Source: Oscillatoria princeps RMCB-10 (lineage in GTDB: Bacteria; Cyanobacteriota; Cyanobacteriia; Cyanobacteriales; Oscillatoriaceae). From it: a stretch of 44,372 nt of DNA. The notes under the pieces are model-generated. The model was not told the origin of the DNA. It saw only the letters and a program-made list of their open reading frames with translations, and did not search any database. Shown in pieces: positions 6,130 through 44,372 of the stretch. How positions within the stretch are numbered: position 1 is the stretch's first letter; every line of letters begins with the position of its first letter. The position numbers were made by a program, and so were the translations under genes. The stretch is taken from NCBI GenBank assembly GCA_019359235.1, contig JAHHHT010000012.1:195648-240019 (forward strand), read 5' to 3'.

Positions 6130-6297
6130 GCCAAGAGCGGTTGCGCCAATCATTTAGAACTGCTATATTATAGAAATAATCCCTAGGAAGTGCGGTTGCC
6201 GGTTGAGCCTCGAAGGGGCGAGCTATCAACCAGTAGATGCGCGACGTTGGGGAAAGTTTTAAACCGGCTTTTTGGCTGTATTAACAGGAGTCCCGAC

Positions 6298-6501
6298 ATG
6301 CAGTTTGAACTGTACCAGAGTGTAGCCTTGCGCCGTGACTTGCCACAATCTAACCTGAAAAAGGGGGATGTGGTGACGGTGGTTGACTTCGTTCCTTACC
6401 CGCTCGAAGGTTGTGAGGAGTGCTACATCCTGGAAAGATTTAACGCTGCAGGAGATAGGGAGCTAGTGGCTGTCTCCGGTTCGGATTTGGCAGCGGTGTG
6501 A
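6298..6501 (+). CDS. DUF4926-like small protein (67 aa).
   Basis: Reads MQFELYQSVALRRDLPQSNLKKGDVVTVVDFVPYPLEGCEECYILERF.... An AGGAG Shine-Dalgarno lies 8 bp upstream. The same fold recurs in the N-terminus of the 25026..25409 product. Confidence 0.5.
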   Translation: MQFELYQSVALRRDLPQSNLKKGDVVTVVDFVPYPLEGCEECYILERFNAAGDRELVAVSGSDLAAV

Positions 6502-6518: not shown

Positions 6519-6606
6519 ACTACAAACTTTTGGGCTAAAGCCCAAATACAAACTTTTGGGCTAAAGCCCAAATACAAACTTTTGGGCTAAAGCCCAACTA
6601 CAAACG
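6519..6606. repeat. Family-G tandem repeat: three copies of a ~27-bp unit, tacaaacttttgggctaaagcccaaa.
   Basis: Tandem copies containing the near-palindrome ttgggctaaagcccaa. Reverse-complement copies are at 13036..13188 (x6) and 38113..38136 (x1). Confidence 0.8.
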
Positions 6607-6798: not shown

Positions 6799-6999
6799 AT
6801 GCGGCAAGTGCTTATCTATACTGATGAAGATGGCAACTGGGTGGCCGAATGTCCCAGCCTACCGGGTTGCGTCAGCCAAGGACAGACCAAAGAAGAAGCC
6901 ATTATTAATATCAAAGAGGCGATTAATTTATATATCTCCGCATTAGAAGAGGACGGTCTGCCCGTTCCCGAAGAACGTTTTGATGCCCTCTTGGTTTGA
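6799..6999 (+). CDS. hicB: HicB-like antitoxin (UPF0150 family).
   Basis: Reads MRQVLIYTDEDGNWVAECPSLPGCVSQGQTKEEAIINIKEAINLYISALEEDGLP. It overlaps the downstream HicA gene by 20 nt. Confidence 0.65.
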   Translation: MRQVLIYTDEDGNWVAECPSLPGCVSQGQTKEEAIINIKEAINLYISALEEDGLPVPEERFDALLV

Positions 7000-7219
7000 G
7001 AGCAAATTACCTAGAATTTCGGGCCGAGAGTGCGTCAAGGCTCTATCAAAGATTGGTTTCTATGTCAAGCGACAGGAAGCCAGCCATATTGTTTTGCGTC
7101 GGGATGAGCCATTTTCTCAGTTCGTCGTGCCCGACCATCAGGAACTTCACAAAGGCACACTCCGCGCTATCATTCGCGACGCTGACCTCAGTGTCGATGA
7201 GTTTATCCAGCTGCTGTGA
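6980..7219 (+). CDS. hicA: HicA-family toxin (YcfA-like mRNA interferase).
   Basis: Reads ...ECVKALSKIGFYVKRQEASHIVLRRDEP...VVPDHQELHKGTLRAIIRDADLSVDEF, carrying the conserved S-H-hydrophobic motif. Confidence 0.65.
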   Translation: MMPSWFESKLPRISGRECVKALSKIGFYVKRQEASHIVLRRDEPFSQFVVPDHQELHKGTLRAIIRDADLSVDEFIQLL

Positions 7220-8773: not shown

Positions 8774-8808
8774 GTAGGGTGCGTTCCCTAAGAGGGAACG
8801 CACCCTAC
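8774..8808. repeat. Family-A hairpin (gtagggtgcgttccctaagagggaacgcaccctac).
   Basis: A perfect 15-bp stem. Copies are at 9309..9343 and 25466..25500. Confidence 0.7.
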
Positions 8809-9308: not shown

Positions 9309-9343
9309 GTAGGGTGCGTTCCCCCCAGGGGAACGCACCCTAC
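9309..9343. repeat. Family-A hairpin (gtagggtgcgttccccccaggggaacgcaccctac).
   Basis: Inverted repeat with the same arms as the copies at 8774 and 25466. Confidence 0.7.
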
Positions 9344-9716: not shown

Positions 9717-9777
9717 GTAGGACAGGCGTCTCGCCTGTCCATTAAGAAACCCGGTTTCTTTAAGAAACCGGGTTTCT
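9717..9777. repeat. Family-B hairpin (gtaggacaggcgtctcgcctgtcc) immediately followed by a family-D palindrome (aagaaacccggtttctttaagaaaccgggtttct).
   Basis: Two inverted repeats lying just 3' of the AcrB-type pump gene. They may act as a terminator. Confidence 0.6.
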
Positions 9778-9824: not shown

Positions 9825-12800
9825 TCAAACGAGCTCAGAAGCTCCCTCAGACTCCCCCTCCCCTGCCTTCGCGGAAGCCGATTTCCCCATCAGCCGCATT
9901 TGAGCCGTCGTGGCGATCGTGTAAAACACCGGCACCACATACAAACTCAAAAACGTCGAGACAAACATCCCCCCAACAACCGACATCCCGATAGACACCC
10001 TCGCCGCCGCACCGGCACCCGTCGCTAGCGCCAGAGGAATCAACCCAAAAATCGTCGAAAAAGCCGTCATCAAAATCGGGCGAAACCGGATTTTCCCCGC
10101 CTCAATCGCCGCCTTGGCAACCGGCATCCCCTTCTCCCGCAGCTGATTTGCAAACTCCACAATCAAAATCGAGTTTTTCGTCGCCAGCCCAATCAGCATA
10201 ATCAGCCCAATCTGGCTGTAGACATTCAAATCCAAACCCGCCAGCAACAGCGCCGCAAACGCGCCCAGCAGCGACAGGGGCACCGCCAGCAAAATAATGA
10301 TCGGGTCGAGATAGCTCTCAAACTGAGCCGCCAAAACCAAGAAAATAAACGCCAGCGCCAGCAGAAAAATAGCGCCCGTCGCTTGTCCCGCCTCTTTAAA
10401 CTCCAGAGACTGCCCCGCATACGATACCCGAATCTCTGCCGGCAGCACCTCCTTCGCTAACCCCTCCAAAGCATCCAGCGCTTGCCCCAACGTATATCCC
10501 GGTGCGGGGCTGCCTTCAATGGCAGCCGCCCGGAAGCGGTTAAAGTGATTGATTTGCGGCGGCGTCGTCGCAGAACTCACCGACACCACATTGCTCAAAG
10601 GAACCACTTGCCCCTGGCTCGTGCGGATATACAGCTGGCGAATATCCTCCGGACTCGCCCGAAATTCTTTTTCAGCTTGAACAACCACCATCAAGCGCCG
10701 GTTGCCCCGGTTGAAACTCGTAATTTTCTGACTTCCCAAAAGGATTTGCAGCGTCCGAGAAATCTCCTGCACCGAAATCCCCAAATTCGCCGCTTGCGCC
10801 CGGTCTACGCTGACAGTCAGCTCCGGTTTATTCAGCTTTAAATTCGTGTCGATATTCACCAACTGCGGCAGCTGCCGCGCCCGACCGGCAAACTCAGCAG
10901 AAACTTGAGCCAGCGTTTCTAAATCGCTGCCTTGCAGCACAAACTGAACCGGCTGCCCGAAACCGCCCCCCGGCAAAGCAGGCGGATTGATTGGCAGCAC
11001 AAAAGCGTCCGTAATTGCGGCAAACCGGCCAAAAAGCTGGCCAATAACCGCTTTTTGCGACTGCTGCGGCTCCTTGCGCTCCTCCCAAGGCTTCAGCCGG
11101 ACAAACGCAAATCCCTGATTCACCTGACCGGGCGCACCCCCACCAAACGCACCAATGGTAAAATAAGTATTAACGTCCTTCACCTGGCTGAGCGTCTGTT
11201 CAATTTCCCCCATCACCTTGTCGGTGTAGTTGATAGTCACCCCTTCCGGTGCCCGCACAATCGTAAAAACAGCCCCCCGATCCTCCGCAGGCAAAAATTC
11301 CAGCGGCAGCTGTTTGAACAGCTGAAACGTCAGCCCCAGCGACACAAAAAACCCCAGAATAACGACCGCCTTTAAAGGCATCAAAATCCGGATAGAGCGG
11401 TCGTAAATCGCCTGCATCACCTTGACGATCCCCTCAAACAATGCCAGAGGCGCACTGAAAAGAGCCGCCAGAGGATTTTTTCTTTCTTCTTTCGCCCACT
11501 CCGGTTTAGCCGGCTTGAGAATGCGGGCGCACATTGCAGGTGCCAGCGTCAGGGCGACAAAGGCAGAGATCAGCACAGAACCGGCAATCGTGATCGCAAA
11601 TTCTGTAAACAGCCGCCCCGTCGTGCCGGCGGAAAACCCCACCGGCACAAACACCGCAATCAGCACCACCGTGGTAGCAATCACCGCAAACACCACCTCA
11701 CCCGTTGCGGCAAAGGTCGCTTGCCTGGGTTTCATGCCCTTTTCTTCGATGTAGCGGATAATATTTTCCAGCACCACGATCGTGTCGTCCACCACCAGCC
11801 CCGTACACAGCGTCAGGGCAAACAGGGTGAGGGTATTAATAGAATACCCCAAAAAGAACATGATGCCAAAGGCACCGATGAGCGAAACGGGAATCGTCAC
11901 GGCTGGAATCAGAGTTGCCCGCCAGTCTCGCACGAAAAAGAAGATAATCAGAATCACCAGAAAAATCGAGAGGTAGAGCGACCCCCAAACCTCCTCAATG
12001 GCCAGCCGGATAAACTCCGAATTGTCCACCGCCAGCTGGTAGCTCATCCCCTCTGGGAACGACTTCGCGAGTTCCGCCATTTTTTCTTTGGCTTGTTTGG
12101 CTACGTCCAGGGTATTGGCATTGGATAGTTTAACCACCCCTAAACCCACTGCCGGTTTGCTATTAAACCGCACGAAAGAGCGCTCGTCTTCCGCGCCAAT
12201 TTCCGCCCGACCGACATCTTTTAACCTCACTTGCGAGCCGTCTGAATTGCGCTTAATCACCAGAGCTTCATATTCCTCCGGATTCTGGAGCCTTCCGAGG
12301 GTTCGCACGGAATATTCCGAGGTTTGCCCTTCAATGATGCCGCTGGGAATCTCGACATTTTCCCGCCGCAGCGCCTGCTCTACATCCAAAACAGTCAGGT
12401 TGCGGGCGGCGAGTTTCACCGGATCGACCCACAGGCGCATGGCATATTTGCGCTCGCCGCCAATAATAACGGTGCTGACGCCCGGAACAGTTTCCAGCGC
12501 GTCTACGATCGACCGGTCCGCGTAGTCGCTCAACTCCAGCGTGGAGAATTTGCTCTCCGGGCTGTAGAGAGCAAACCACACAATCGGAGAGGCGTCGCTC
12601 GATTGCTTGTTGACAATTGGCGCTTCGATCTCGTCGGGAAGTTTGCCCCGCACTCGGTCCACGCGAGAGCGCACGTCTTGCGCCGCTTCCTCAATGGGCC
12701 GGCTCAGTTCAAACTGGACGGTAATCGCACTCACTGACTCCCGACTTTGTGAGGTGAGGGTTTTAATCCCCTCAACCCCATTAATTTCAGCTTCTAATAT

Positions 12801-12992
12801 TTCAGTGACTTCCGTCTCTACAACTTGGGGGTTGGCACCCGGATAAACCGTAGTTACGCTCACCACCGGCGGGTCAATTGTGGGGTATTCCTGCACCGGC
12901 AGCCGGGTGTAACCCACCAGCCCCACCAAGATAATCAGCAGGGAACACACTGATGAGAAGACCGCTCGCTTGATGAAAAAATTGGTGAACAT
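9825..12992 (-). CDS. Multidrug efflux RND transporter permease (HAE1/AcrB family).
   Basis: The protein is 1055 aa with 12 TM segments and two large periplasmic loops. Diagnostic motifs are ...VVLENIIRYIEEKGMKPRQA... and AAARVSIGMSVVGGMF. Confidence 0.9.
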   Translation of the reverse strand: MFTNFFIKRAVFSSVCSLLIILVGLVGYTRLPVQEYPTIDPPVVSVTTVYPGANPQVVETEVTEILEAEINGVEGIKTLTSQSRESVSAITVQFELSRPIEEAAQDVRSRVDRVRGKLPDEIEAPIVNKQSSDASPIVWFALYSPESKFSTLELSDYADRSIVDALETVPGVSTVIIGGERKYAMRLWVDPVKLAARNLTVLDVEQALRRENVEIPSGIIEGQTSEYSVRTLGRLQNPEEYEALVIKRNSDGSQVRLKDVGRAEIGAEDERSFVRFNSKPAVGLGVVKLSNANTLDVAKQAKEKMAELAKSFPEGMSYQLAVDNSEFIRLAIEEVWGSLYLSIFLVILIIFFFVRDWRATLIPAVTIPVSLIGAFGIMFFLGYSINTLTLFALTLCTGLVVDDTIVVLENIIRYIEEKGMKPRQATFAATGEVVFAVIATTVVLIAVFVPVGFSAGTTGRLFTEFAITIAGSVLISAFVALTLAPAMCARILKPAKPEWAKEERKNPLAALFSAPLALFEGIVKVMQAIYDRSIRILMPLKAVVILGFFVSLGLTFQLFKQLPLEFLPAEDRGAVFTIVRAPEGVTINYTDKVMGEIEQTLSQVKDVNTYFTIGAFGGGAPGQVNQGFAFVRLKPWEERKEPQQSQKAVIGQLFGRFAAITDAFVLPINPPALPGGGFGQPVQFVLQGSDLETLAQVSAEFAGRARQLPQLVNIDTNLKLNKPELTVSVDRAQAANLGISVQEISRTLQILLGSQKITSFNRGNRRLMVVVQAEKEFRASPEDIRQLYIRTSQGQVVPLSNVVSVSSATTPPQINHFNRFRAAAIEGSPAPGYTLGQALDALEGLAKEVLPAEIRVSYAGQSLEFKEAGQATGAIFLLALAFIFLVLAAQFESYLDPIIILLAVPLSLLGAFAALLLAGLDLNVYSQIGLIMLIGLATKNSILIVEFANQLREKGMPVAKAAIEAGKIRFRPILMTAFSTIFGLIPLALATGAGAAARVSIGMSVVGGMFVSTFLSLYVVPVFYTIATTAQMRLMGKSASAKAGEGESEGASELV

Positions 12993-13035
12993 GAGTCGCT
13001 CATTTACACTCTATAATTGCTACCTTTTATCGTTC

Positions 13036-13188
13036 AAGTTTGTAGTAGGGCTTTAGCCCAAAGGTTCGTAGTAGGGCTTTAGCCCAAAGTTTGTAGTAGG
13101 GCTTTAGCCCAAAGTTTGTAGTAGGGCTTTAGCCCAAAGTTTGTAGTAGGGCTTTAGCCCAAAGTTTGTAGTAGGGCTTTAGCCCAAA
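13036..13188. repeat. Family-G tandem repeat: ~6 copies of a ~25-27-bp unit (gtttgtagtagggctttagcccaaa).
   Basis: A perfect tandem array inside the 300-bp adaptor-pump intergenic spacer. It is the reverse complement of the 6519 array. Confidence 0.85.
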
Positions 13189-13200
13189 ACGCATAAGGAG

Positions 13201-13246
13201 GAGGCAGAGCCTCCTGGAAAGGGTTCCCAGGCGGAGCCTGGGAACC
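13201..13246. repeat. Family-C element (gaggcagagcctcc ... gttcccaggcggagcctgggaac).
   Basis: Other copies at 23033..23079, 24908..24952 and 26930..26975 carry the same two modules in the opposite order. Confidence 0.6.
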
Positions 13247-13294
13247 AGATTAAAAAAGAAAAGGGCGTTTTTCTCCCTTTTCCCTTCTCCCCTC

Positions 13295-14932
13295 TCACTT
13301 CTCCCGTGCTCCCTTGCTCCCTTTCCCCTCACCGCTGGGGAGGGGCATAATAGGCGCACCGTCAGCCAGCTTTTGGATGCCGGAAACAATAATAGTGTCA
13401 CCGGGCACAAGTCCTTCGATGACTTCCGCACGATCCCCATTAACCAAGCCCAGTTTCACCGGCTGCCGTTTCGCCACCGCCGGCTCGTCGGGTCCTGGAG
13501 CCACAAACACAAATCGCTCCTGACCTTGGAAAACCACAGCCGTTGCCGGCACCACAGCACTAGAGCGCCGGTTCCAAATCACCTTGGCCCGCACGAACTC
13601 GCCATTCAGCAGCTGCCCTTGGGGATTGTCAAACGCCGCTTTTGCCAGAACCGTTTGCGAGTCAGTCACCGTTGGGGAAATAAAGCTAACCCGACCTGTC
13701 CCCAAGGATTTCCCTTGCGAGTCGCTCAGCTCCACCGGCAGCCCCTCACGCAAATCCGACGCCCGCTCCAAAGGAACCGGCATGCGCAGTTCCAGAAATT
13801 CGTTCTGCGTCACCGTGGTGATCTCGTCCCCTTTTTTGACATAATCTCCCAATTTCACGGGAATATCGCCGATTTTCCCGGCAAAAGGGGCCACTACCGC
13901 CGCCCTTTCCAGCTGGGATTCCGCGTTCCGCACTTGGGCTGCCGCTTGGGCCACTTGCGCTTCCGCTTGCGCGATCTCCTCTGGGCGGGAGCCATTCTGC
14001 AGTTGCAGCAGGGCTTGCCGCTGCTGTTCCACTTCCGCTTTCAGCCGCTCAATGTCGGAAGTCCTGCCCTTTCGCACTTGAGCCAAGCGCCTTTCGGCTT
14101 CTTGCAACTGGGCGGCGGCGCTGCGGTCTTCTTTTATATATTGATCCAGCGTGTCCTGAGCAATCGCCCCCTGCTGCGCCAATTCCCCATACCGGCTCAC
14201 CCGCTGCTTGGTGAGTTCTGCAGCGGCTTTTGCCGACTCCAATCGCGCTTCAGCTTGAGCGATCTCTTCCGGTGCCGCCCCAGCTTGCGCATCGGCGAGG
14301 CGGGTTTCCGCTGCGGCTAAACTGGCTTTGGCTCTGGCAATTTCCTCCGGGCGGCTGCCGGCTTGCAGCTCTTTGAGCCTAGCTTCGGCACCGAGCTGGT
14401 TCGCCTTGGCTTGGCGGAGCTCGGCTTGCAGGGAGTCGCTCTCTATGCGAGCCACCGAGGTCCCTTTTGCCACCTGCGAGCCGGATTTGACATAGATTTC
14501 CCTGACTAAACCGTCGATTTCTGCCTTCAGCCCCACTGACTTCTGGGCCTCTAGGGTGCCGACAAACTCCGAGGACTCTTCCACAGGGGCGAGCGCCACT
14601 CGCGCTAGCTTCACCGGCACTCCGCGAGGTTTGCTCAGGGCTGCCGGTGGGCCGCCCGCCGCCCCCTGGCTGCGCGACTGCCACCACTGCCAGCCGAAAA
14701 CCCCACCTCCTGCCAGCAGCAGCAGCCCCACCGCCATCAGCGCAGGCAGCAGCAGCGATCCGGATTTTGGTGGCGGCTGTTCTGCCGGCGGCTCATCTGG
14801 CTCGTATTCCCCCGCATCCTCTGGAGAGAGGACGTAGCCGGTCTTTACATCATCCTGAATGCGAGCCGGTTTCTCCTCGGCTTCAGCTAACCCCTCAGGG
14901 TTCTTAACATGATTGGTTTTCGTCATCAGCAA
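13295..14932 (-). CDS. RND efflux periplasmic adaptor subunit (HlyD family).
   Basis: The protein is 545 aa, with a TM anchor LLLPALMAVGLLLLAGGGVFGW, a coiled-coil hairpin and a beta-barrel. It lies upstream of the pump on the same strand. Confidence 0.85.
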   Translation of the reverse strand: MLMTKTNHVKNPEGLAEAEEKPARIQDDVKTGYVLSPEDAGEYEPDEPPAEQPPPKSGSLLLPALMAVGLLLLAGGGVFGWQWWQSRSQGAAGGPPAALSKPRGVPVKLARVALAPVEESSEFVGTLEAQKSVGLKAEIDGLVREIYVKSGSQVAKGTSVARIESDSLQAELRQAKANQLGAEARLKELQAGSRPEEIARAKASLAAAETRLADAQAGAAPEEIAQAEARLESAKAAAELTKQRVSRYGELAQQGAIAQDTLDQYIKEDRSAAAQLQEAERRLAQVRKGRTSDIERLKAEVEQQRQALLQLQNGSRPEEIAQAEAQVAQAAAQVRNAESQLERAAVVAPFAGKIGDIPVKLGDYVKKGDEITTVTQNEFLELRMPVPLERASDLREGLPVELSDSQGKSLGTGRVSFISPTVTDSQTVLAKAAFDNPQGQLLNGEFVRAKVIWNRRSSAVVPATAVVFQGQERFVFVAPGPDEPAVAKRQPVKLGLVNGDRAEVIEGLVPGDTIIVSGIQKLADGAPIMPLPSGEGKGSKGAREK

Positions 14933-15130: not shown

Positions 15131-15470
15131 TCAGCCTGCGGCAGGAGAGAATATTTTTTGCCAGCTGAATCCCGGCAACGGGATTGAAATGACCCAGCTC
15201 TCTCGCGGATGCTCCAGCATTTTTTGCCGCCAGCGGGCCCGTCCTTTGGCCATGATGCTGTAGATTTTGCGGCAGGGGCCGCTTTCTGACTCCTCCTCCC
15301 CAATGGCGACAATCTCGCCCCGCTCTTGCAAGCCCTTCAGAGCGCGGATAAATCGCTCCGTAGCTGACACTGATGCAGCCGCTCATCAACAGCTCCAGCT
15401 GCTGCTTCAGCCGGTAGCCGTGCGTGGGTTCGCGCTACAATTGGCCCTGTGCGGATAGCTCTAGCTTTTA
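15131..15470 (-). pseudogene. Decayed PadR-family transcriptional regulator.
   Basis: Frame B reads KLELSAQGQL*REPTHGYRLKQQLELLMSGCISVSYGAIYP, with an in-frame TAG where the conserved AEGPMHGY helix is expected. A 1-nt frame change then leads into frame A, which reads ALKGLQERGEIVAIGEEESESGPCRKIYSITAKGR, the PadR wing and helix alpha-4. No ATG starts the reading frame. Confidence 0.55.
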
Positions 15471-17137: not shown

Positions 17138-17210
17138 TCGGGTGTGCCGGCAGTGCCAGCTGTGAAATATGCCGGCCAAAATATAGCGTTTCTCATATTC
17201 GTCAGGTGCT

Positions 17211-17245
17211 GAGAAACCCGGTTTCTTTAAGAAACCGGGTTTCTC
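17211..17245. repeat. Family-D palindrome (gagaaacccggtttctttaagaaaccgggtttctc).
   Basis: Inverted repeat between the convergent adaptor and kinase genes. It may act as a bidirectional terminator. Confidence 0.6.
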
Positions 17246-17402
17246 ATGCGTACTGAGATACGAGTTTCTCGCCGCGAGTCTTCTGCCGTAAAACTTGTTG
17301 CGCTGCGGCGCACCCTGTTAACATTTTGCCGATTTTTGTAAAAATATTTCTGCTTAATTAGTGGTGTAACATTTAGCCAGCGGCAAGACGCGATTCGGCG
17401 CT

Positions 17403-22997: not shown

Positions 22998-23130
22998 AGG
23001 GACAGGCGAGACGCCTGTCCTACGTCTTTTCTCGTTCCCAGGCGGAGCCTGGGAACGCACACAGGGAGGCTCTGCCTCCTTTTTTTGCCTGGGAAGGGAC
23101 AGGCGGGACGCCTGTCCTACGTCTTTTTTT
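22998..23130. repeat. Cluster of three elements: family-B hairpin, family-C element, family-B hairpin.
   Basis: The three pieces are gggacaggcgagacgcctgtcctac (22998..23023), cgttcccaggcggagcctgggaacg...gggaggctctgcctcc (23033..23079) and gggacaggcgggacgcctgtcctac (23106..23130). Confidence 0.65.
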
Positions 23131-25465: not shown

Positions 25466-25541
25466 GTAGGGTGCGTTCCCTCTTCGGGAACGCACCCTAC
25501 CCCTACGAAGCATTACTCCCCTCCCCGCCGGCGGGGAGGGG
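25466..25541. repeat. Family-A hairpin (25466..25500) followed by a family-F hairpin (cccctccccgccggcggggagggg, 25518..25541).
   Basis: Inverted repeats. A family-F copy is present in reverse orientation at 38061..38085. Confidence 0.65.
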
Positions 25542-26929: not shown

Positions 26930-26975
26930 TTCGTCTCTCGTTCCCAGGCTCTGCCTGGGAACGCAATCTGGAGGC
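26930..26975. repeat. Family-C element (gttcccaggctctgcctgggaac ... ggaggctctgcctcc).
   Basis: Inverted repeat with the same modules as at 13201, 23033 and 24908. Confidence 0.6.
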
Positions 26976-27085
26976 TCTGCCTCCTTTCAACGGAAAAGCA
27001 GATTAAAAGCCTAACAGCTTAAACCGCCAAGGACGCCAAGAACTCTTGGCGCTCGCAGGGAGGGAGCGGTTCCTTCTTAAAGACA

Positions 27086-30621: not shown

Positions 30622-30705
30622 CAGAAACCCGGTTTCTCCAAGAAACCGGGTTTCTTCACTCCGTGGCCAAGAAACCCGGTTTCTCAGAGAAACCGGGTTT
30701 CTTCA
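30622..30705. repeat. Two tandem family-D palindromes (agaaacccggtttctccaagaaaccgggtttcttcactc, twice).
   Basis: A pair of strong hairpins immediately 3' of psbU. They are likely a rho-independent-style terminator. Confidence 0.7.
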
Positions 30706-32821: not shown

Positions 32822-33060
32822 AACATTTTTGACCCCATAACACCCTTGGCCTCAAAACACCTATCAGTTAGACGCGCCCCTCAGGAGTTCATTATATCAG
32901 TGAATTCACTTACCTGTCTGCAAAAAATCTGCGCAACCCGTACATTCACGTAAATATACTTTAATTTACAAAAATACACAATGGAGGCTTAACCCGTCAT
33001 CTTTGTTAAGAAAAGGGAGAGCGGGGCGTCAATCTGAGCGGGCTGGCTGAGCGGAACGTC

Positions 33061-33094
33061 AAGAAACCAGGTTTCTTTAAGAAACCCGGTTTCT
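33061..33094. repeat. Family-D palindrome (aagaaaccaggtttctttaagaaacccggtttct).
   Basis: Inverted repeat in the spacer downstream of the GGDEF gene. Confidence 0.6.
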
Positions 33095-33251
33095 GGTGGT
33101 GGCTCTCTTCAACTTAATGATGTCCGCCGGCGCTCGCCCAGCTTTTCAAGAAGATAAGAGGCAATATTAATAAATGTAAAGCCCGCTCGCCGCACAGTCA
33201 GTAGTTTTGCTGACCGGCACAGCACTTGAGTGGGGCGAGCCCGGGTGTTAT

Positions 33252-38060: not shown

Positions 38061-38136
38061 CCCCTCCCCGCGTGCGGGGAGGGGGAGAAAGAGATGGAGT
38101 TTCTCCAAACAGGTTTGTAGTAGGGCTTTAGCCCAA
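38061..38136. repeat. Family-F hairpin (cccctccccgcgtgcggggaggggg, 38061..38085) plus a single family-G unit (gtttgtagtagggctttagcccaa, 38113..38136).
   Basis: Inverted repeat plus one unit of the 27-bp tandem family. Both sit exactly at the point where the PAP2-like reading frame loses its homology. Confidence 0.65.
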
Positions 38137-39517
38137 CCGGCACTCCTCGCAAGACGGGTCGCCAGAAATCGTAGGCGTATTTGGCGTCCCAAGCGACAAT
38201 GCCGGCGTCTGCTAGGGCGATATTTAGCAGGGCGAACATGCGGGCGTCTTCTAACAGGGTGCTGCCACTTTTTAAGGAGGCTTGTTGGGCAATTTGGTTC
38301 CAGTGTCCGGGCGGGGTGTAGGTGCCGGCACCGTCCGCCCAGAAGAGAGCGATTTCTGTCCCTTCAGGGGTGCGGGCGCTGCTGTTTTTTTCGCCCAATT
38401 CTTTGACTTGATTGAACTCTATGGTATAATCAGAACTGGTGAGGGGAGGGAGTCCGCTTGGGCGAAATTGGGAGTCGCTTGTGATGGCAAAGGGGGCGAG
38501 ATTCGCCCACTGGGGGAGGAGTGCCGGTTGAAAACCGGGAGGTGTGGGAATCCAATTGCCGGCACTGGGTTGTGGGGTGTAGGGCACTTTGGTTGCGGAA
38601 CCATCCGCACTTCTGGCGGCTAAAATTTGAGCGGCTGCGATTTGCCCTATGGTGACGCCATCTGTTTCGGATTTGCTGTCGGGAATTGCTGCGAGAGAGT
38701 CGGTGAGTGCGGTGTCGAAGATGGCGGATTGGTTGGGGTATAAATTGATGAGAGTGCGGTGCGCTGCTGTGGCTGCGGCGGCTTCTGGGTCGGCGTTTGG
38801 CGGCGCTTCTAGGTTGGCTTTGTATAGAGTGCCGGTTTTGGCGATTGCCGTGACGGCATCGTATATTGCTGTGTGGAGTATGGCTAAGTTTCTTGCGGCT
38901 AAGGGGGGTGCTGTTTTGTCTGTTTGGATGGCGTTTAATGCTGTCTGGTTCCAGTCAATGATGGGGTTGGTGGGGTCTGCGGAAAGGAAGCGGTTGAGTT
39001 GCCGGTCGAATTTGAAGGCGGGTGAACAGCTTCGCCCTTCTGCTATGCCGTGGGTTTGGAGGTGCTGTAATGCTAGATTTCGGCTGCCGGTGCAAGCTTG
39101 ATTGACATCGGGGTTGTTGGATAAATAGTAGTCTAAACTGACGTAAGGCGAGAAAGCGCGTCCCTCTGCGATGCCGAATGTTTGCAGGTGTTTGAAGAGT
39201 TGCTCGCTGTCGAATCCGGCTAAGTCTGGGTGGCTGGCGCGATAGAAGTTTAGGTCTATTAAGGGGGAGAATTGCCGGTTTTATGCTAGGCCAAATTGTT
39301 CTAAGTGGTTGAAGAGTTGCTCGTTTGTTAAGCCGGCTATGTCGGGGTTTTTGGCGCGGTAGTAGTTGAGGTCGGCATTGGGGGAGAATTGCCGGTTTTC
39401 GGATAAGCCCTTGGTTTGGAAGTGCTGGAGTAATTGTTGGGGGGTGGTTATGCCGGCGGCTGTCAGGTCGGGGTTGCCGGTGGCGTAGAAATCGGGGTCA
39501 AATAGTTGGACGGACAT
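38110..39517 (-). pseudogene. Vanadium-dependent haloperoxidase / PAP2-superfamily-like gene with an N-terminal array of ~38-aa repeats. It is inactivated by an in-frame TAA and truncated at the 3' end.
   Basis: ORFs 39281..39517 and 37865..38587 share one frame and are separated only by a TAA near 39281. In other repeat copies that position is GAA (..GLSENRQFSP vs ..GLA*NRQFSP). Four repeats of the type DPDFYxxxNPDLAxAGxxxxQLxxHxQxxGxxEGRxFSP precede TPPGHWNQIAQQ...ALLNIALADAGIVAWDAKYAYDFWRPV, which contains the PAP2 motif 1 (K-x6-RP). After RPV the frame runs into the family-G repeat and the GT2 gene. The expected PSGH and SRxxxxxHxxxD motifs are absent. Confidence 0.55.
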
Positions 39518-40298: not shown

Positions 40299-43028
40299 CT
40301 AATCTGAGAGGATACTCGAAAGGATTTTTAGTGGAAAAGTGTCAACAAACGGATTTAAGCTTTCAGAATTGAGAGAGCGATTTATCTGGTCTAAAGCATA
40401 CAATATCCCTATTCCTGCAAAAGCGATAGCAGCAACAGGTATTACTGCAAGCGGAATCGCAAACTCCCCTGATGGGTCTGTGTCATTAGTAGGACTATTC
40501 CCCACATACCGGTACAGATTAACATCCCCACCGGCAAACCCAATCGGGTCCTCACTAATAAATCTTCCTACCCCAGCATCATAATAGCGCGCCCGGTAGA
40601 AAGAAAGCCCCGTCTCCTCATCCAACTCCCGCCCCGTATAACCAAAGCGGAAGTCCAAATTCGGATTCGTCTCACCCGTTACCTTCCCAAAGCTATCATA
40701 CCTGAGGTGATTTTGTAAAGCCCCCGCCTCATTAACCAAATCCCGCACTGTCCCCTGGTTATCTGTCAGCGCCCACAGCACCTGGCCCGAAGCACTTTCA
40801 TCCGCCAAAATCTGGTCAAGCACCGGCCCGTGCAAATAGCGGTGAGTCTGGTTCCCACTCCCATCAAACGTCAGAGCAATGTGCTCCCCGTCATAGACAA
40901 AACGCTCCACTGATAGCCCAACCGGCCCCCCTCCATCCCCATCTATCTCCTTCCCAATCCGCCGGTCAAAAACATCGTAAACATACTCAACTGACTTAAT
41001 TATATCACCCCTGCTATTTTTAGTCACAGCTGCAATCAAACGGTTGCGGTAATCCCAGCTGTACTCTGTTACCTCACCCGTAGCAATCTTAACCCGCTTA
41101 GTCCGGTTCCCTTCAGCGTCATACTCGTAATTGTAAACTCCATCTGACTGCAGCTGGTTATTCGCCAGAGTCTGGTATCCCGTATTGGTGCGGTTGCCAT
41201 TGCCGTCATAACTATAAGCCTCATCATTTTGGTAACTGTGGTCTGTCCCCGTCACCTGGTTGCGGTCGTCGTAGCTGTAGCTGCTGCTGCCATCGCCAGA
41301 AGTAAACTGAGTAATCCGCGTTGCCGCATCGTAACTCCAATTATAATTCGCAAAAGTCGCCGTCCCTTTGCCATGAATTAATTGAGTCAGCCGGCCCGCA
41401 CTGTCATAAGTATAGCCGGTAGTCGCCACCTGTTGCGTCCCCGCCAAATCGCTGTAGCGAGAGACACCCGTCATCTGGCTAGCAGCATCATAGGCCATGT
41501 CCACTCGCTTGTTCGCAACCCCATTGCCGCTTTGAGTAATTCGAGTAACGCGGTTGAGGGCATCGTAAGTGAAAAATTCACTCCCCTTTACCTGACCATT
41601 AATTGTATCACTAACCGACAGCAAATTGTTGGGACTATCATAAGTGTAGTTCAGCAGAACATTCGGCGCAAAAGGCGTCCCCGCATTACTCACCGCAGTC
41701 ACGCGACCGGCACCATCGTAAGTGTAGTCGTAAGTAGAGTCGGGGTCGCTGACAATATCGAGCTGGTCCGCCGCATCATAAGTATAAGTAATTGTGCGGG
41801 CGGGATTGACACCGGCATCCAGCCACTGTTCAGAAGAAAGCCTGTTAAGTTCATCATAAACAAACTTGCAGACGCGATTATTGCGGTCAGAAGCTGTCAC
41901 CTGGTTGCCGGCGGCATCATAAGTGTAGGCACGCTTTAGCCCCAGCTGATTAGTTGACTCAATCAGCCGGTCTAACTCATCGTAAATAAACGCCGTAGTG
42001 TTCAGTCCTGGGTCAGTGACAGAAAGGACATTGCCGACAGCATCATAAGTTGTTGCCGTCGTTTGGTTGAGAGCGTCCGTAAACGCAATTTGGCGATTTA
42101 GAGGGTCGTAATTATAGCGAGTGACGTGCCCCAAAGCATCCGTAACCGCAATCGTATTGCCATTGGCATCATATTCTGTCCCAATCGTCTGACCCAGAGG
42201 ATCTCTGACAGCAGAAAGCCAGTTGCGACTGTTATAAGTGTACTCAGTAGTGCGCCCCAGTTCATCAGTGACAGCAATCAGATTGCCTATCGCATCATAC
42301 TTGGCAGCCGTTGTTTTCAAAAGCGCATCAATCGTGCCGGTGCGCCGGTTTAGCCTATCATAGACATACTGAGTTTTCCGTCCCAGCGCATCAGTCACTG
42401 ACAGCTGGTTGCTGGCGGCATCATACGTGTAGGCAGTGGTGTGCGAGAGGGGATCTGTAACACTCTTGCGGCGATTGCGGGCGTCGTAAATAAAGGAAGT
42501 CGTGCGGGTCAGTTCATCGGTAATAGCAGTCAGATTGCCGGCACCGTCATAATCAAACGCAGTAATACCATTCTTAGCATCGGTGATTTGGGTTTGCCGG
42601 TTGCGACTGTCATATGCGTGCAGAGTGGTTCGCCCGAGTTGGTCAGTTTCAGCAATAACATTGCCGGCGGCATCGTAACTCGTGGTAAAAACGCCATTTA
42701 AGGCATCGATTTCCTGAATCAGCCGGCCTAAATCGTCATACTCGTACTCAGTCCTGTGCCCGTTAGCATCTACTTGGGCAACCATTTGATTCGCCGCATC
42801 GTACTCAAAAGCCGTCGCCTTCCCCAGCGGGTCAATCTGCCGAATCAACCGACCGCGAGCGTCGAAAACCCTGTTATTTCGGTTCCCATTCGCATCGAAA
42901 GTAGAACTGACATTATTGTCGAAATCATACCGCATCTTATCCCGCGACCCATCGGGATTGACCGTCTCAATCAGACGATTCCGACTGTCATTCATACTCA
43001 TACTCCGTCCGATTGCCATTCTCATCAA
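40299..43028 (-). CDS. RHS/YD-repeat protein, the C-terminal ~909-aa part of a frameshifted polymorphic toxin gene.
   Basis: Dozens of YD repeats (xxGxxxxYxYDxxGRL). The RHS core ends YRARYYDAGVGRFISEDPIGFAGGDVNLYRYVGNSPTNDTDPSGE, which is the DPxG[L] cleavage/boundary motif. The C-terminal tip is only ~54 aa and hydrophobic (FAIPLAVIPVAAIAFAGIGILYAL...). Confidence 0.85.
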   Translation of the reverse strand: MMRMAIGRSMSMNDSRNRLIETVNPDGSRDKMRYDFDNNVSSTFDANGNRNNRVFDARGRLIRQIDPLGKATAFEYDAANQMVAQVDANGHRTEYEYDDLGRLIQEIDALNGVFTTSYDAAGNVIAETDQLGRTTLHAYDSRNRQTQITDAKNGITAFDYDGAGNLTAITDELTRTTSFIYDARNRRKSVTDPLSHTTAYTYDAASNQLSVTDALGRKTQYVYDRLNRRTGTIDALLKTTAAKYDAIGNLIAVTDELGRTTEYTYNSRNWLSAVRDPLGQTIGTEYDANGNTIAVTDALGHVTRYNYDPLNRQIAFTDALNQTTATTYDAVGNVLSVTDPGLNTTAFIYDELDRLIESTNQLGLKRAYTYDAAGNQVTASDRNNRVCKFVYDELNRLSSEQWLDAGVNPARTITYTYDAADQLDIVSDPDSTYDYTYDGAGRVTAVSNAGTPFAPNVLLNYTYDSPNNLLSVSDTINGQVKGSEFFTYDALNRVTRITQSGNGVANKRVDMAYDAASQMTGVSRYSDLAGTQQVATTGYTYDSAGRLTQLIHGKGTATFANYNWSYDAATRITQFTSGDGSSSYSYDDRNQVTGTDHSYQNDEAYSYDGNGNRTNTGYQTLANNQLQSDGVYNYEYDAEGNRTKRVKIATGEVTEYSWDYRNRLIAAVTKNSRGDIIKSVEYVYDVFDRRIGKEIDGDGGGPVGLSVERFVYDGEHIALTFDGSGNQTHRYLHGPVLDQILADESASGQVLWALTDNQGTVRDLVNEAGALQNHLRYDSFGKVTGETNPNLDFRFGYTGRELDEETGLSFYRARYYDAGVGRFISEDPIGFAGGDVNLYRYVGNSPTNDTDPSGEFAIPLAVIPVAAIAFAGIGILYALDQINRSLNSESLNPFVDTFPLKILSSILSD

Positions 43029-44372
43029 TCATAGCAGTCTGATTGCCGGCATCGTCATACTCCATCCGCTGCGCCGCCTCATCCGGAGTCCCTAAAGCAA
43101 AAGTCGTTTTAACCAGCCGGTTCATGGCATCGTACTCATACTCCGTCCGATTGCCATTCTCATCAATCATAGCCGTTTGATTGCCGGCAGCGTCATACTC
43201 CATCCGCTGCGACGCCTCATCCGGAGTCCCCTTCGCAAAAGTCACCTCAACAAGCCGGCCAAAATTATCATAATCGTAATCCGTCAACCGCCCCAGAGGG
43301 TCAGTCTCAGTATCAATCAGATTCTTGCTAGTATACGTGTAGCGAGTGATAACATCATCCCCACCGCCAACAGAACCCACCACGCGAGTTTCAGACAGCG
43401 TATTCCCAGTCAGCGTGTCAATTTCATAAAGCGTCTGCCGGCCTAACTCATCCGTCACACTCGTCACCTGATTGAAAATCGGGTCGTAAGTATAACTGCG
43501 CTTCCCAGTTCCCCCACCCCCCACAGAATTAGTCGTATTCAGCCTGACAGAAACATTATTGCTGAAACTGTTCCCCGTCACCAAATCCCTGTCGCCATCA
43601 AAATCCAGATCCGCCAGCGCCACAGATGCCGGCTGCGAACCGACAGCCACATCATTTCCGGCTACAAAAGAGCCATCTCCCTGACCCAAAAGCACCGATA
43701 CTTTGCTGTCAGAACGATTCGCGATAACAATATCTTTCTTGCTGTCCCCGTCAGCGTCTCCTACAGCTACTGCGACAGGTTCAGACCCTACCGTATAATC
43801 AGTCTGCACTCCAAAAGTTCCATTCCCAGAACCCAACCGCACTGACACCTTATTGGTAAAACGATTTGCCCCAATAAGATCCGAGTCGCCATCACTGTCT
43901 AAATCTGACAGGATCGCTGCGGAAATCCCAACCCCAAATGCCACCTGACTCCCAGCAGCAAAAGAGCCAGATCCATCCCCCAACAGCACCGACAAGCGGT
44001 CAGAATTGCTATTGGCGCTAACAATGTCAAAGTCGCCATCCCCATCCACATCTCCTATCGCCACTCCCACCGGAAAATACCCAACCGAGTAATCAGTTTC
44101 AGGCGCAAAAGTGCCATCTCCATTCCCCAGTCGAACTGACACGCGGTTCAAGGCGGCGCTAGTCGTAACCATGTCTAGATTCCCATCGCCATTCAAATCC
44201 TCTAAAGCCACAAAGTCAGACCCAACCGCCACCTCGTAGTCAGTAACAGTAAAATTGCCCTCGCCATCCCCCAATAAAACTGAGTAATAGTCCTTATCCA
44301 AACCATAACCCATGCCCCCAGCGGTGACAATATCGGAGTTTCCATCCCCGTTTACGTCTCCCGTTGCTACCG
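42988..44372 (-). CDS. N-terminal part of the same RHS protein, with FG-GAP/VCBS-type repeats then the first YD repeats. It continues beyond the 3' edge of the window.
   Basis: Repeats such as DGDGDFDIVSANSNSDRLSVLLGDGSGSF recur about 6 times, followed by YTYDPIFNQVTSVTDELGRQT. The frame is open upstream to the window end. It is separated from the 40299..43028 frame by a single extra base near 43000: ..TEYEYE* against expected ..TEYEYDDSRNRLIETV. Confidence 0.8.
   Translation of the reverse strand, partial: VATGDVNGDGNSDIVTAGGMGYGLDKDYYSVLLGDGEGNFTVTDYEVAVGSDFVALEDLNGDGNLDMVTTSAALNRVSVRLGNGDGTFAPETDYSVGYFPVGVAIGDVDGDGDFDIVSANSNSDRLSVLLGDGSGSFAAGSQVAFGVGISAAILSDLDSDGDSDLIGANRFTNKVSVRLGSGNGTFGVQTDYTVGSEPVAVAVGDADGDSKKDIVIANRSDSKVSVLLGQGDGSFVAGNDVAVGSQPASVALADLDFDGDRDLVTGNSFSNNVSVRLNTTNSVGGGGTGKRSYTYDPIFNQVTSVTDELGRQTLYEIDTLTGNTLSETRVVGSVGGGDDVITRYTYTSKNLIDTETDPLGRLTDYDYDNFGRLVEVTFAKGTPDEASQRMEYDAAGNQTAMIDENGNRTEYEYDAMNRLVKTTFALGTPDEAAQRMEYDDAGNQTAMIDENGNRTEYEYE
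43000..43250. repeat. Tandem duplication of ~120 bp inside the RHS gene, giving two near-identical copies of a YD-repeat segment.
   Basis: 43000..43125 and 43128..43250 differ at only a few positions. Both encode (A)MIDENGNRTEYEYDAMNRLVKTTFA(K/L)GTPDEA(S/A)QRMEYD(A/D)AGNQT. Confidence 0.8.

Follow-up and report, generated by a model that had tools for sequence, protein, structure and literature searches.

This locus raises the question of whether a short tandem array lying between the two genes of an efflux operon serves that operon or belongs to the genome at large. The array lies in a 44,372-nt stretch of Oscillatoria princeps RMCB-10 (assembly GCA_019359235.1, contig JAHHHT010000012.1, positions 195,648 to 240,019 of the forward strand; hereafter the window), between the adaptor and pump genes of an RND efflux operon on the minus strand. 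Our analysis indicates that the array is an ordinary genomic repeat resembling the repetitive extragenic palindromes (REPs), not a dedicated efflux-pump switch, and that it helped to stretch a normally tight gene junction to about 300 bases. It probably arose when a dispersed, REP-like repeat with a GTAG tag was amplified locally; on this view O. princeps and the Prado101 lineage both received the array from their common ancestor, its units evolve in concert, and any adaptor:pump effect is a by-product.

The array and the dispersed family of its unit

The units found in the window, and the genes around the six-unit array, are as follows.

13038..13188, plus strand: six-unit head-to-tail array, unit GTTTGTAGTAGGGCTTTAGCCCAAA, 25 bp, seen in the sequence, by Tandem Repeats Finder (TRF) and by pattern search
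13038-13062, 13064-13088, 13089-13113, 13114-13138, 13139-13163 and 13164-13188, plus strand: the units of this array
6529-6553, 6555-6579 and 6581-6605, minus strand: three-unit array, period 26, with a 7-bp stem TTTGGGC/GCCCAAA
6520-6527, minus strand: orphan tail GTTTGTAG beside the three-unit array
38113..38137, plus strand: single unit GTTTGTAGTAGGGCTTTAGCCCAAC
9825..12992, minus strand: RND pump gene, AcrB/HAE1-type (PF00873, E=0)
13295..14932, minus strand: membrane-fusion (HlyD-type) adaptor gene, from the open reading frame (ORF); the JGI call starts at 14926
12993..13294, minus strand: adaptor-pump spacer, 302 nt, a mosaic of repeats

TRF reported the array at 13036-13188 with a period of 25, 6.1 copies and 96% matches, and a mismatch-tolerant pattern search of the window (at most 3 mismatches) returned 10 unit matches, against 0 in 100 shuffles. 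The original prediction of a tandem array of about six units at 13036-13188 was therefore borne out by the sequence and by both programs, as was its position in a spacer of about 300 bp (302 nt, 12993-13294) between the adaptor and pump genes of the minus-strand RND operon. Two details had to be corrected. The unit, given there as 27 bp, measures 25 bp (26 once), and the quoted unit string itself has 25 letters; nor is the array perfect, as its unit 2 (13064-13088) is the variant GTTCGTAG, with one additional G before it at 13063. The array is 151 nt long, half of the spacer, and the operon mRNA, read from the minus strand, would carry the unit complement UUUGGGCUAAAGCCCUACUACAAAC. The near-palindrome ascribed to each unit is present, but in this array it consists of GGGC/GCCC only (4 bp), because the units read TAGGGC; the 7-bp stem is found in the array at 6529.

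Both other occurrences named in the original prediction were also found. The three-unit array in reverse orientation, placed there at 6519..6606, lies at 6529-6605 on the minus strand, accompanied by the tail at 6520-6527, and the lone unit at 38113 occupies 38113-38137 on the plus strand. The three-unit array is downstream of a plus-strand ORF (6190-6501), as claimed, but the DUF4926 match of this ORF (24.7 bits) is under the Pfam cut-off (29.1 bits). The 3′ flank of the unit at 38113, CCGGCAC(T/C)CCT, is common to longer composite copies in Prado101 (L042) and PCC 10802 (L005).

The unit is not confined to this window. An exact scan of one genome per species (596 Gb) with the pattern TTGTANTNGGGCTTTAGCCCAA, which has 20 specified bases and an expectation of about one chance match, yielded at least 96 stretches with the unit. 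Nearly all of the listed stretches came from Oscillatoria sp. PCC 10802, Oscillatoria sp. Prado101, Oscillatoriaceae M33_DOE_052, an uncultured Oscillatoria and a metagenome-assembled genome (MAG) from a tar biofilm, and three Dapis genomes had a few copies. The sampled stretches were chosen by pattern match, and the abundance and positional statistics given below are rough. The genome search for further arrays, proposed as a check when the array was first noticed, thus uncovered a dispersed family present in at least 96 stretches in relatives.

The alignment of at least 389 cores from the 96 sampled stretches and the window gave the consensus GTTYGTAG-T(T 84%/A 15%)-GGGC-TTTA-GCCC-AA. This core of about 22 nt consists of an unpaired 5′ tail (GTTYGTAG), a G+C stem [T(T/A)GGGC / GCCC(A/T)A] and a 4-nt loop, which is TTTA or its flip TAAA. 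In 389 copies the GTAG at −6 to −3 is conserved at frequencies of 0.95 (G), 0.93 (T), 0.96 (A) and 0.96 (G), and the last G is 96% conserved although it was free in the search pattern. The tail nearly always precedes the same GGGC...GCCC stem, and variation falls mainly in the loop (TTTA, TTCA, TAAA, TAAT). The stem is conserved as sequence, with almost zero compensatory pairs. The same 22-nt core occurs in at least six genomes, at more than 130 sites that lie apart, three of them in the window; flanks are unrelated between sites except for a few recurrent composite contexts.

These features place the unit close to the GTAG-tagged REP superfamily, which includes E. coli REP/BIME and the cyanobacterial GTAG-12, -15 and -16 families (Di Nocera, De Gregorio & Rocco 2013, PMC3733652). 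Members of that superfamily are stem-loops of 20-40 bp with an unpaired GTAG at one end, conserved in more than 90% of copies (PMC3733652). The unit likewise has a stem-loop (core 22-25 nt; stem of 4 bp here and of 6-7 bp in the consensus and the 6529 array; loop of 4 nt), a GTAG tag, and dispersed extragenic copies. A literature search for the core sequence returned unrelated primer matches only. The family itself thus appears to be undescribed, though its kind is known.

Gene models in the sampled loci were crude longest-ORF calls. By these, 101 of the 111 assessable clusters (91%) are intergenic, while 76% of the sampled DNA lies in ORFs. Occupancy was similar in tandem (21%), convergent (24%) and divergent (18%) gaps (p = 0.34-0.67), and orientation relative to co-directional neighbours was 34:20 (p = 0.076). 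The orientation of the unit showed no replication-strand pattern along the 6.9-Mb PCC 10802 contig, and 3-5-nt direct repeats, sought as target-site duplications at 63 singletons, did not exceed shuffled controls. Since the unit occurs in many arrays genome-wide, the array at 13038 is not specific to the efflux operon but one among many arrays of a genome-wide family. The RNA processing or uncoupling of expression first proposed for it, or termination, may nevertheless occur in the operon. In annotation it should be masked or labelled as a lineage-specific repeat, not as an efflux-specific regulator.

In the Dapis genomes and the tar-biofilm MAG (L040, L076) a full 32-nt palindrome with tails on both sides was seen, GYTYGTAG-TWGGGC-loop-GCCCWA-CTACRARC. 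In these more distant genomes the unit may have its ancestral form.

Architecture of the arrays and evolution of the spacer

Across the family, 238 neighbouring pairs of units are head-to-tail and 29 are opposite (at least 89% head-to-tail), some of the "opposite" pairs being loop flips only. Neighbours of the same orientation are most often 26 bp apart (121 cases), next most often 25 bp (37 cases), with minor classes from 22 to 34 bp, and clusters range from one unit (62 singletons) to 13. Linkers and periods are specific to each array, with values of 22, 25, 26, 28, 29, 32 and 33 bp (for example 22 in L055, 28 in L004, 32 in L072 and 33 in L005). Higher-order repeats of 104 bp and about 79 bp were found in L007 and L033, respectively. 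Within arrays the loops flip between TTTA and TAAA while the tail orientation is kept (L060, L197). Such sequence features suggest that units are amplified and homogenised locally, through slippage, unequal exchange or conversion, together with DNA hairpin extrusion; they do not suggest repeated insertion of an element of fixed length. In the array of L012, identical cores are separated by differing linkers of 9-10 nt, which leaves some room for insertion beside existing copies.

The orthologous spacer of the Prado101 lineage, whose pump protein is 95.7% identical, is 318 nt long and carries six units with the same flanking hairpins and leader. The units themselves differ array-wide: variant CCCTACTACAAAC accounts for five of the six window units and none of the six in L100 of the Prado101 lineage, while CCCAACTACGAAC accounts for five of the six in L100 and none in the window. 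An ancestral-looking variant remains in both arrays, at the fifth unit in the window and at the first in Prado101. Such array-wide differences between the two lineages point to concerted evolution. Among samples of the Prado101 lineage the loop of the pump-proximal unit differs as well, being TTTA in L100 and L103 and TAAA in L101, L102 and L104. In more distant relatives the adaptor-pump junction is 10 nt (Oxynema aestuarii, 75% identity) or 46 nt (another relative, 72%), without repeats. The spacer of about 300 nt is therefore a lineage-specific expansion.

Copy number differs at other orthologous sites. At two sites shared by PCC 10802 and Prado101 we found one versus three units and one versus at least three, and the single unit at 38113 of the window corresponds in Prado101 to a five-unit array whose period is about 60-70 bp. 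The expected copy-number variation is thus seen at these sites (1 vs 3, 1 vs ≥3, 1 vs 5) but not in the adaptor-pump spacer, where both lineages have six.

Several short-read contigs (L002, L003, L103, L104) terminate within the array. Copy number could not be read from the Logan and MAG contigs, because they stop within it. In the ENA contig L102, 7.5 units are fused to an unrelated upstream flank with an FHA-domain gene; we set this aside as evidence of copy-number variation, as it is probably an assembly chimera that arose at the repeat. Arrays of this unit cause breaks or false joins in assemblies of short reads. An 8.63-Mb contig of JGI sample 3300057162 contains the window sequence without a difference, and the pump protein of the window is 100% identical to one recorded at NCBI for O. 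princeps RMCB-10.

The rest of the spacer is also built of recognisable parts, which on the mRNA, from 5′ to 3′, come in the order terminator-like hairpin, hpA palindrome, hpB palindrome, six-unit array and 45-nt leader.

13252..13282, minus strand: terminator-like hairpin GAAAAGGG/CCCUUUUC, 8 bp, loop of 9 nt, then U6; recognised by eye and in the folds
13222-13246: hpA palindrome GGTTCCCAGGC-GGA-GCCTGGGAACC, 11 bp
13200-13214: hpB palindrome GGAGGCAGAGCCTCC, 6 bp, GGAGGC-nnn-GCCTCC
12993..13037, minus strand: leader from the last unit to the pump ATG, 45 nt

The terminator-like hairpin begins 12 nt past the adaptor stop codon and is kept in the Prado101 lineage; on the mRNA strand it and its U6 tract precede the array. 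It was missed by the terminator scanner, whose loop limit is 8 nt. The promoter and terminator scan of 12700-13600 returned no promoter-like site and one terminator-like site, at hpB, which is within chance expectation. The composite of hpB and hpA (13200-13246) recurs at 23033-23079 and 26939-26984, making three intergenic sites with the palindromes about 12 nt apart. Across composite copies the hpA-type palindrome reads (C/G)GTTCCCAGGC-nnn-GCCTGGGAAC(G/C), and the loop triplets differ or flip between copies and between species; at hpA itself the loop is flipped (TCC/GGA) relative to the Prado101 ortholog. As the hpA/hpB pair recurs elsewhere, the spacer is a mosaic of several dispersed repeats. 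The 37 nt adjoining the pump ATG are identical between O. princeps and the Prado101 lineage.

Sequence conservation in the spacer was compared with that of the flanking genes. At four-fold degenerate sites the window and the Prado101 lineage are 85.7% identical in the pump gene and 84.8% in the adaptor gene, whereas the unique parts of the spacer are identical at 139 of 146 positions (95%, against an expected 85.5%, p = 1.6e-4). This suggests that the spacer as a whole carries some function, for example in the terminator-like hairpin or the pump leader; the array is not singled out by it.

As had been supposed, each unit is able to form a stem-loop in predicted folds. On the mRNA strand a unit of the 13038 array is predicted to fold with a 4-bp stem at −6.6 kcal/mol (z = −1.6), and the family consensus at −8.7 kcal/mol. 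The predicted fold of the whole array is −55 kcal/mol (z = −6.2 against shuffles), reached partly through nested pairings between units, and the whole spacer also folds much better than shuffled sequence (z = −6.1). No match to Rfam was found in the whole window at the gathering score, and permissive E-values over 12900-13400 gave nothing beyond sub-threshold chance matches. No tRNA or tmRNA genes are present.

Mechanism and rival explanations

Under the reading that we favour, new sites would be reached by a copy mechanism without target duplication, and the mobiliser may have been a tyrosine (HUH) transposase acting on the GTAG-plus-hairpin signal. Resident units would then multiply or shrink by replication slippage, unequal exchange or gene conversion, and hairpin or cruciform extrusion would account for the frequent loop flips. 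The adaptor-pump transcript would in this way gain six weak stem-loops downstream of the terminator-like hairpin, and the array may modestly change how stable the adaptor segment is or how often transcription continues into the pump gene. An effect on expression, if any, would be incidental to a repeat that is selfish or neutral, and not the array's reason for existing.

Transposases were searched for with three queries, E. coli RayT (its sequence matching PDB 4ER8 at 100%), IS608 TnpA and a Kovacikia RAYT, and with an HUH...YxxNP regular expression, which had no match on the sampled loci. A RAYT of 183 aa is conserved among cyanobacteria. By scanning metagenomes with a RAYT alignment and then searching proteins, we found one, P0163, in all three samples that also bear the Prado101-lineage RND locus. 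Since the contigs of P0163 (L196, L197) carry arrays of our unit, this RAYT belongs to the Prado101 lineage. The array of its own REP runs to at least 9-11 copies (L196 9400-10000, L198 1-624), and the nearest array of our unit is about 2 kb away, in another gap. The protein database contains no homologue more than 67% identical to P0163, so that this RAYT may be missing from O. princeps RMCB-10 and PCC 10802. No RAYT gene flanked by the same repeat (a REPtron) was found among the contigs and 757 kb examined, and inverted doublets (REPINs) are not the main arrangement of the unit (238 same vs 29 opposite pairs).

Several of these results weigh against the favoured reading. No Y1/HUH transposase was found by phmmer or tblastn in the 757 kb around 135 repeat sites, the whole 8.63-Mb genome being outside this search. 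The RAYTs of Kovacikia, Okeania and two other genomes are flanked by REPs of the form GTAGG(G/A)TGCGTTA...TAACGCAC, and P0163 is preceded by at least nine head-to-tail copies, with a 53-bp period, of a REP of the GTAGGGTGG... type, not by our unit. Because the RAYT is flanked by a different REP, membership of the unit in a REP-RAYT system is not established; trans-mobilisation through the common GTAG-plus-hairpin signal is possible. Classical REPs, moreover, occur mostly in inverted pairs, unlike the head-to-tail unit (at least 89%). Finally, the unique parts of the spacer exceed synonymous identity, a hint that the spacer is not junk, and six units have been retained in both lineages, so that the array may have a selected role at this locus.

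The last two points also favour the reading of the array as a selected intercistronic RNA element, an unlikely reading but the most serious of the rivals, and one not mutually exclusive with local amplification of a dispersed repeat. In that case the stem-loops and the neighbouring hairpins would guard the adaptor mRNA from 3′-5′ decay, or attenuate read-through into the pump gene or its translation, giving an excess of adaptor over pump. Tripartite RND pumps contain more adaptor than pump protomers (AcrA6:AcrB3), and the array is placed directly between the two cistrons. The folding of the spacer and the array against shuffles (z = −6.1 and −6.2), the terminator-like hairpin and U6 after the adaptor stop, conserved in the sister lineage, and the conservation of the unique spacer segments (139/146 vs 85.5%, p = 1.6e-4) are also consistent with such a role, and at all three window sites the local mRNA would carry the CTAC strand. 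If the element acted as strand-specific RNA, however, a preference for orientation or gap type would be expected; none was seen in the family (34:20, p = 0.076; p = 0.34-0.67 for co-directional or convergent gaps), which argues against it. The array is, in addition, made of the weak-stem variant (4 bp, −6.6 kcal/mol per unit), and the stem of the family is conserved as sequence, with almost no compensatory pairs, as expected from copying or sequence recognition more than from selection on RNA structure. Distant relatives have a junction of 10-46 nt and no array, and co-transcription of adaptor and pump is a presumption.

Sequence conservation of this sort would also suit clustered protein-binding sites acting at the DNA level, for a nucleoid-associated protein, gyrase, a polymerase or a domesticated RAYT. 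REP/BIME are bound by IHF, Pol I and gyrase (review PMC3184786). The GGGC/GCCC stem is essentially invariant and the unpaired GTTYGTAG tail equally conserved, the L012 cores are perfectly kept while their linkers differ, no strand bias relative to transcription was seen, and the loop can point either way, as it would if what is read were a symmetric stem. Recent copying, however, predicts equally high identity, copy number and period vary freely between orthologous sites, unlike those of a tuned array, and no candidate binder was identified; we regard this reading as doubtful. Equally doubtful is that the arrays were built by an enzyme inserting the GTAG-tagged hairpin beside an existing copy, whether the lineage RAYT on a non-cognate repeat or some other HUH enzyme or nuclease, and that the arrays, the one in the efflux operon among them, were then kept because they insulate or tune the genes beside them, acting between cistrons as RNA or DNA. 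The perfect cores and variable linkers of L012, the long head-to-tail array of the RAYT's own REP and the conservation of the spacer above neutral are hints in its favour, and such self-targeting insertion, if true, would be a mode of propagation distinct from that of REPINs. An expansion of the microsatellite kind, confined to this spacer and without kinship to a dispersed or mobile family, could explain near-identical tandem units, which slippage alone can expand, and array-specific variants. It is contradicted by the presence of the core at more than 130 sites with unrelated flanks in at least six genomes, three of them in the window, and is very improbable. Least credible of all is a degenerate CRISPR-like array or a coding tandem repeat, to which the short palindromic tandem repeats and a JGI gene call across the spacer might seem to point: there are no spacers between units (period 25-26), every frame is stopped within three units, and no cas genes were seen among the ORFs examined.

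Some known element types were rejected. The unit is not a MITE, as it is 22-25 nt long (MITEs are usually over 50 bp) and had no target-site duplication at 63 singletons. Nor is it a cyanobacterial short tandemly repeated repetitive (STRR) heptamer, its period being 25-26 bp and the heptamer tract of this locus lying separately at 13271-13327. An NtcA-type site (GTA-N8-TAC) was rejected by eye on account of its spacing misfit.

Related systems and neighbouring features

The closest parallels are with the GTAG-tagged REPs (PMC3733652), which the unit resembles in its short stem, a loop within the 2-4-nt range, high copy number, extragenic position and restriction to a lineage, and in forming clusters in which units and variable lengths of flanking DNA are repeated together in tandem. 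It differs from them in its arrangement (at least 89% of neighbouring pairs head-to-tail), in its stem (4-7 bp vs the usual 6-9), in its conserved tail (8 nt, GTTYGTAG, vs 4), and in showing no detectable preference for co-directional or convergent gaps with our crude gene models. With the REPIN-RAYT system (Bertels & Rainey 2011, PMC3116915; E. coli TnpA-REP, PDB 4ER8) it would share, judging from its sequence, a GTAG-plus-hairpin signal of the kind bound and cleaved by RAYTs; it also lacks target-site duplication, and its host lineage encodes a RAYT (P0163). Tandemly ordered REP clusters are also found in P. fluorescens SBW25 (PMC3116915). Unlike in that system, where the replicative unit, the REPIN, is an inverted doublet, inverted pairs are rare in the unit family, the RAYT of the sister lineage is flanked by another REP, and no RAYT lies near the 135 sampled unit sites.

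Small dispersed repeats (SDRs) of 21-27 nt, hairpin-capable and intergenic, were reportedly described in Nostoc and Anabaena by Elhai et al. in 2008. The unit is similar in length (about 25 nt), in being hairpin-capable and in its filamentous cyanobacterial hosts. SDRs are often embedded in larger conserved contexts and lie near tandem heptamer repeats, and heptamer repeats also abut this spacer (13271-13327). The host is, however, of the Oscillatoriales and not the Nostocales, and SDRs were reportedly described mainly as single insertions, not as 13-unit arrays. In E. coli, an intercistronic REP between malE and malF is said to stabilise mRNA (work attributed to Newbury in 1987 and Stern in 1988). 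Stabilisation of mRNA by intercistronic REPs is also mentioned in a review (PMC3184786). There, as here, palindromic repeats stand between two cistrons of a transport operon, and the malE-malF repeats protect the upstream message, giving differential expression; the hairpins of our array are much weaker per unit, and a separate terminator-like hairpin already follows the upstream gene. The arrays also behave like satellites or minisatellites in concerted evolution, with array-specific variants, higher-order repeats, copy-number change and homogenisation within arrays. Unlike satellites, the unit is dispersed as singletons at unrelated sites as well, and carries a transposase-type recognition signature.

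The family offers a clean example of a GTAG-tagged palindrome living mainly head-to-tail, with concerted evolution and flipping of hairpin loops. Since it coexists with a RAYT flanked by another REP family, one may ask if such enzymes also work on GTAG hairpins that are not their own. As repeats have turned a 10-46-nt junction into a structured spacer of 300 nt, the locus is also a natural test of the effect of repeat invasion on operon expression.

The JGI gene call that crosses the spacer (67 aa, L001 5661-5864, corresponding to window 13129-13332 on the minus strand) runs through the hairpins and 2.4 repeat units. It is almost certainly spurious, since the array has stops in all six frames within three units and its period is not a multiple of 3. 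The heptamer-like G/A-rich tandem tract (TTCTCCC on the plus strand, eight copies, 13271-13327) spans the adaptor stop; it encodes the last residues of the adaptor (...GEGKGSKGAREK) and runs into the terminator-like hairpin and U6.

Upstream of the adaptor gene, a 79-aa remnant of a PadR-family regulator gene was found at 15131-15370 on the minus strand (PadR profile positions 37-73, E = 0.0037). An intact PadR gene precedes the adaptor-pump operon in relatives (191 aa in the Prado101 lineage, 170 aa in Oxynema and 193 aa in another genome), and about 600 nt of Prado101 sequence have no counterpart at the O. princeps remnant. From these sequences, the operon of O. princeps RMCB-10 may have lost its repressor. 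Beyond the other end of the operon, a HicA/HicB toxin-antitoxin pair lies at about 6799-7219 on the plus strand (JGI L001 11774-12194), just downstream of the 6529 array. The Prado101-lineage contig lacks the block of DUF2470, ferredoxin, HicAB and DUF4926-like ORF, and its pump gene leads directly to the RNase III gene.

Other repeats were also noticed in the window. A further family of palindromes tagged with GTAG has the form GTAGGGTGCGTTCCC-loop-GGGAACGCACCCTAC, or GTAGGGTGGG as a variant; it occurs at 8774-8808, 9309-9343, 25466-25500 and about 2272-2316, and resembles the REPs flanking cyanobacterial RAYT genes (L109, L111, L113, L114, L196). An extended tail common to both REP families was considered and rejected, as GTTT precedes only 3 of 69 copies of the GTAGGGTG type. 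Another dispersed palindrome, AAGAAACC(C/G)GGTTTCTT, forms mostly back-to-back pairs (9745-9777, 17210-17246, 30623-30703, 33049-33107) and had 109 matches in 713 kb of related loci. Longer tandem repeats lie at 39173-39424 (117 bp, 2.2 copies) and 42992-43285 (138 bp, 2.1 copies), the latter within or at the junction of large minus-strand ORFs. By far the commonest 8-mer palindrome of the window is TGCCGGCA (21 copies in 44 kb), with GCCGGC occurring 101 times and the usual cyanobacterial HIP1, GCGATCGC, only five times. The ranking is the same in the PCC 10802 loci, with 95 copies of TGCCGGCA and 36 of GCGATCGC.

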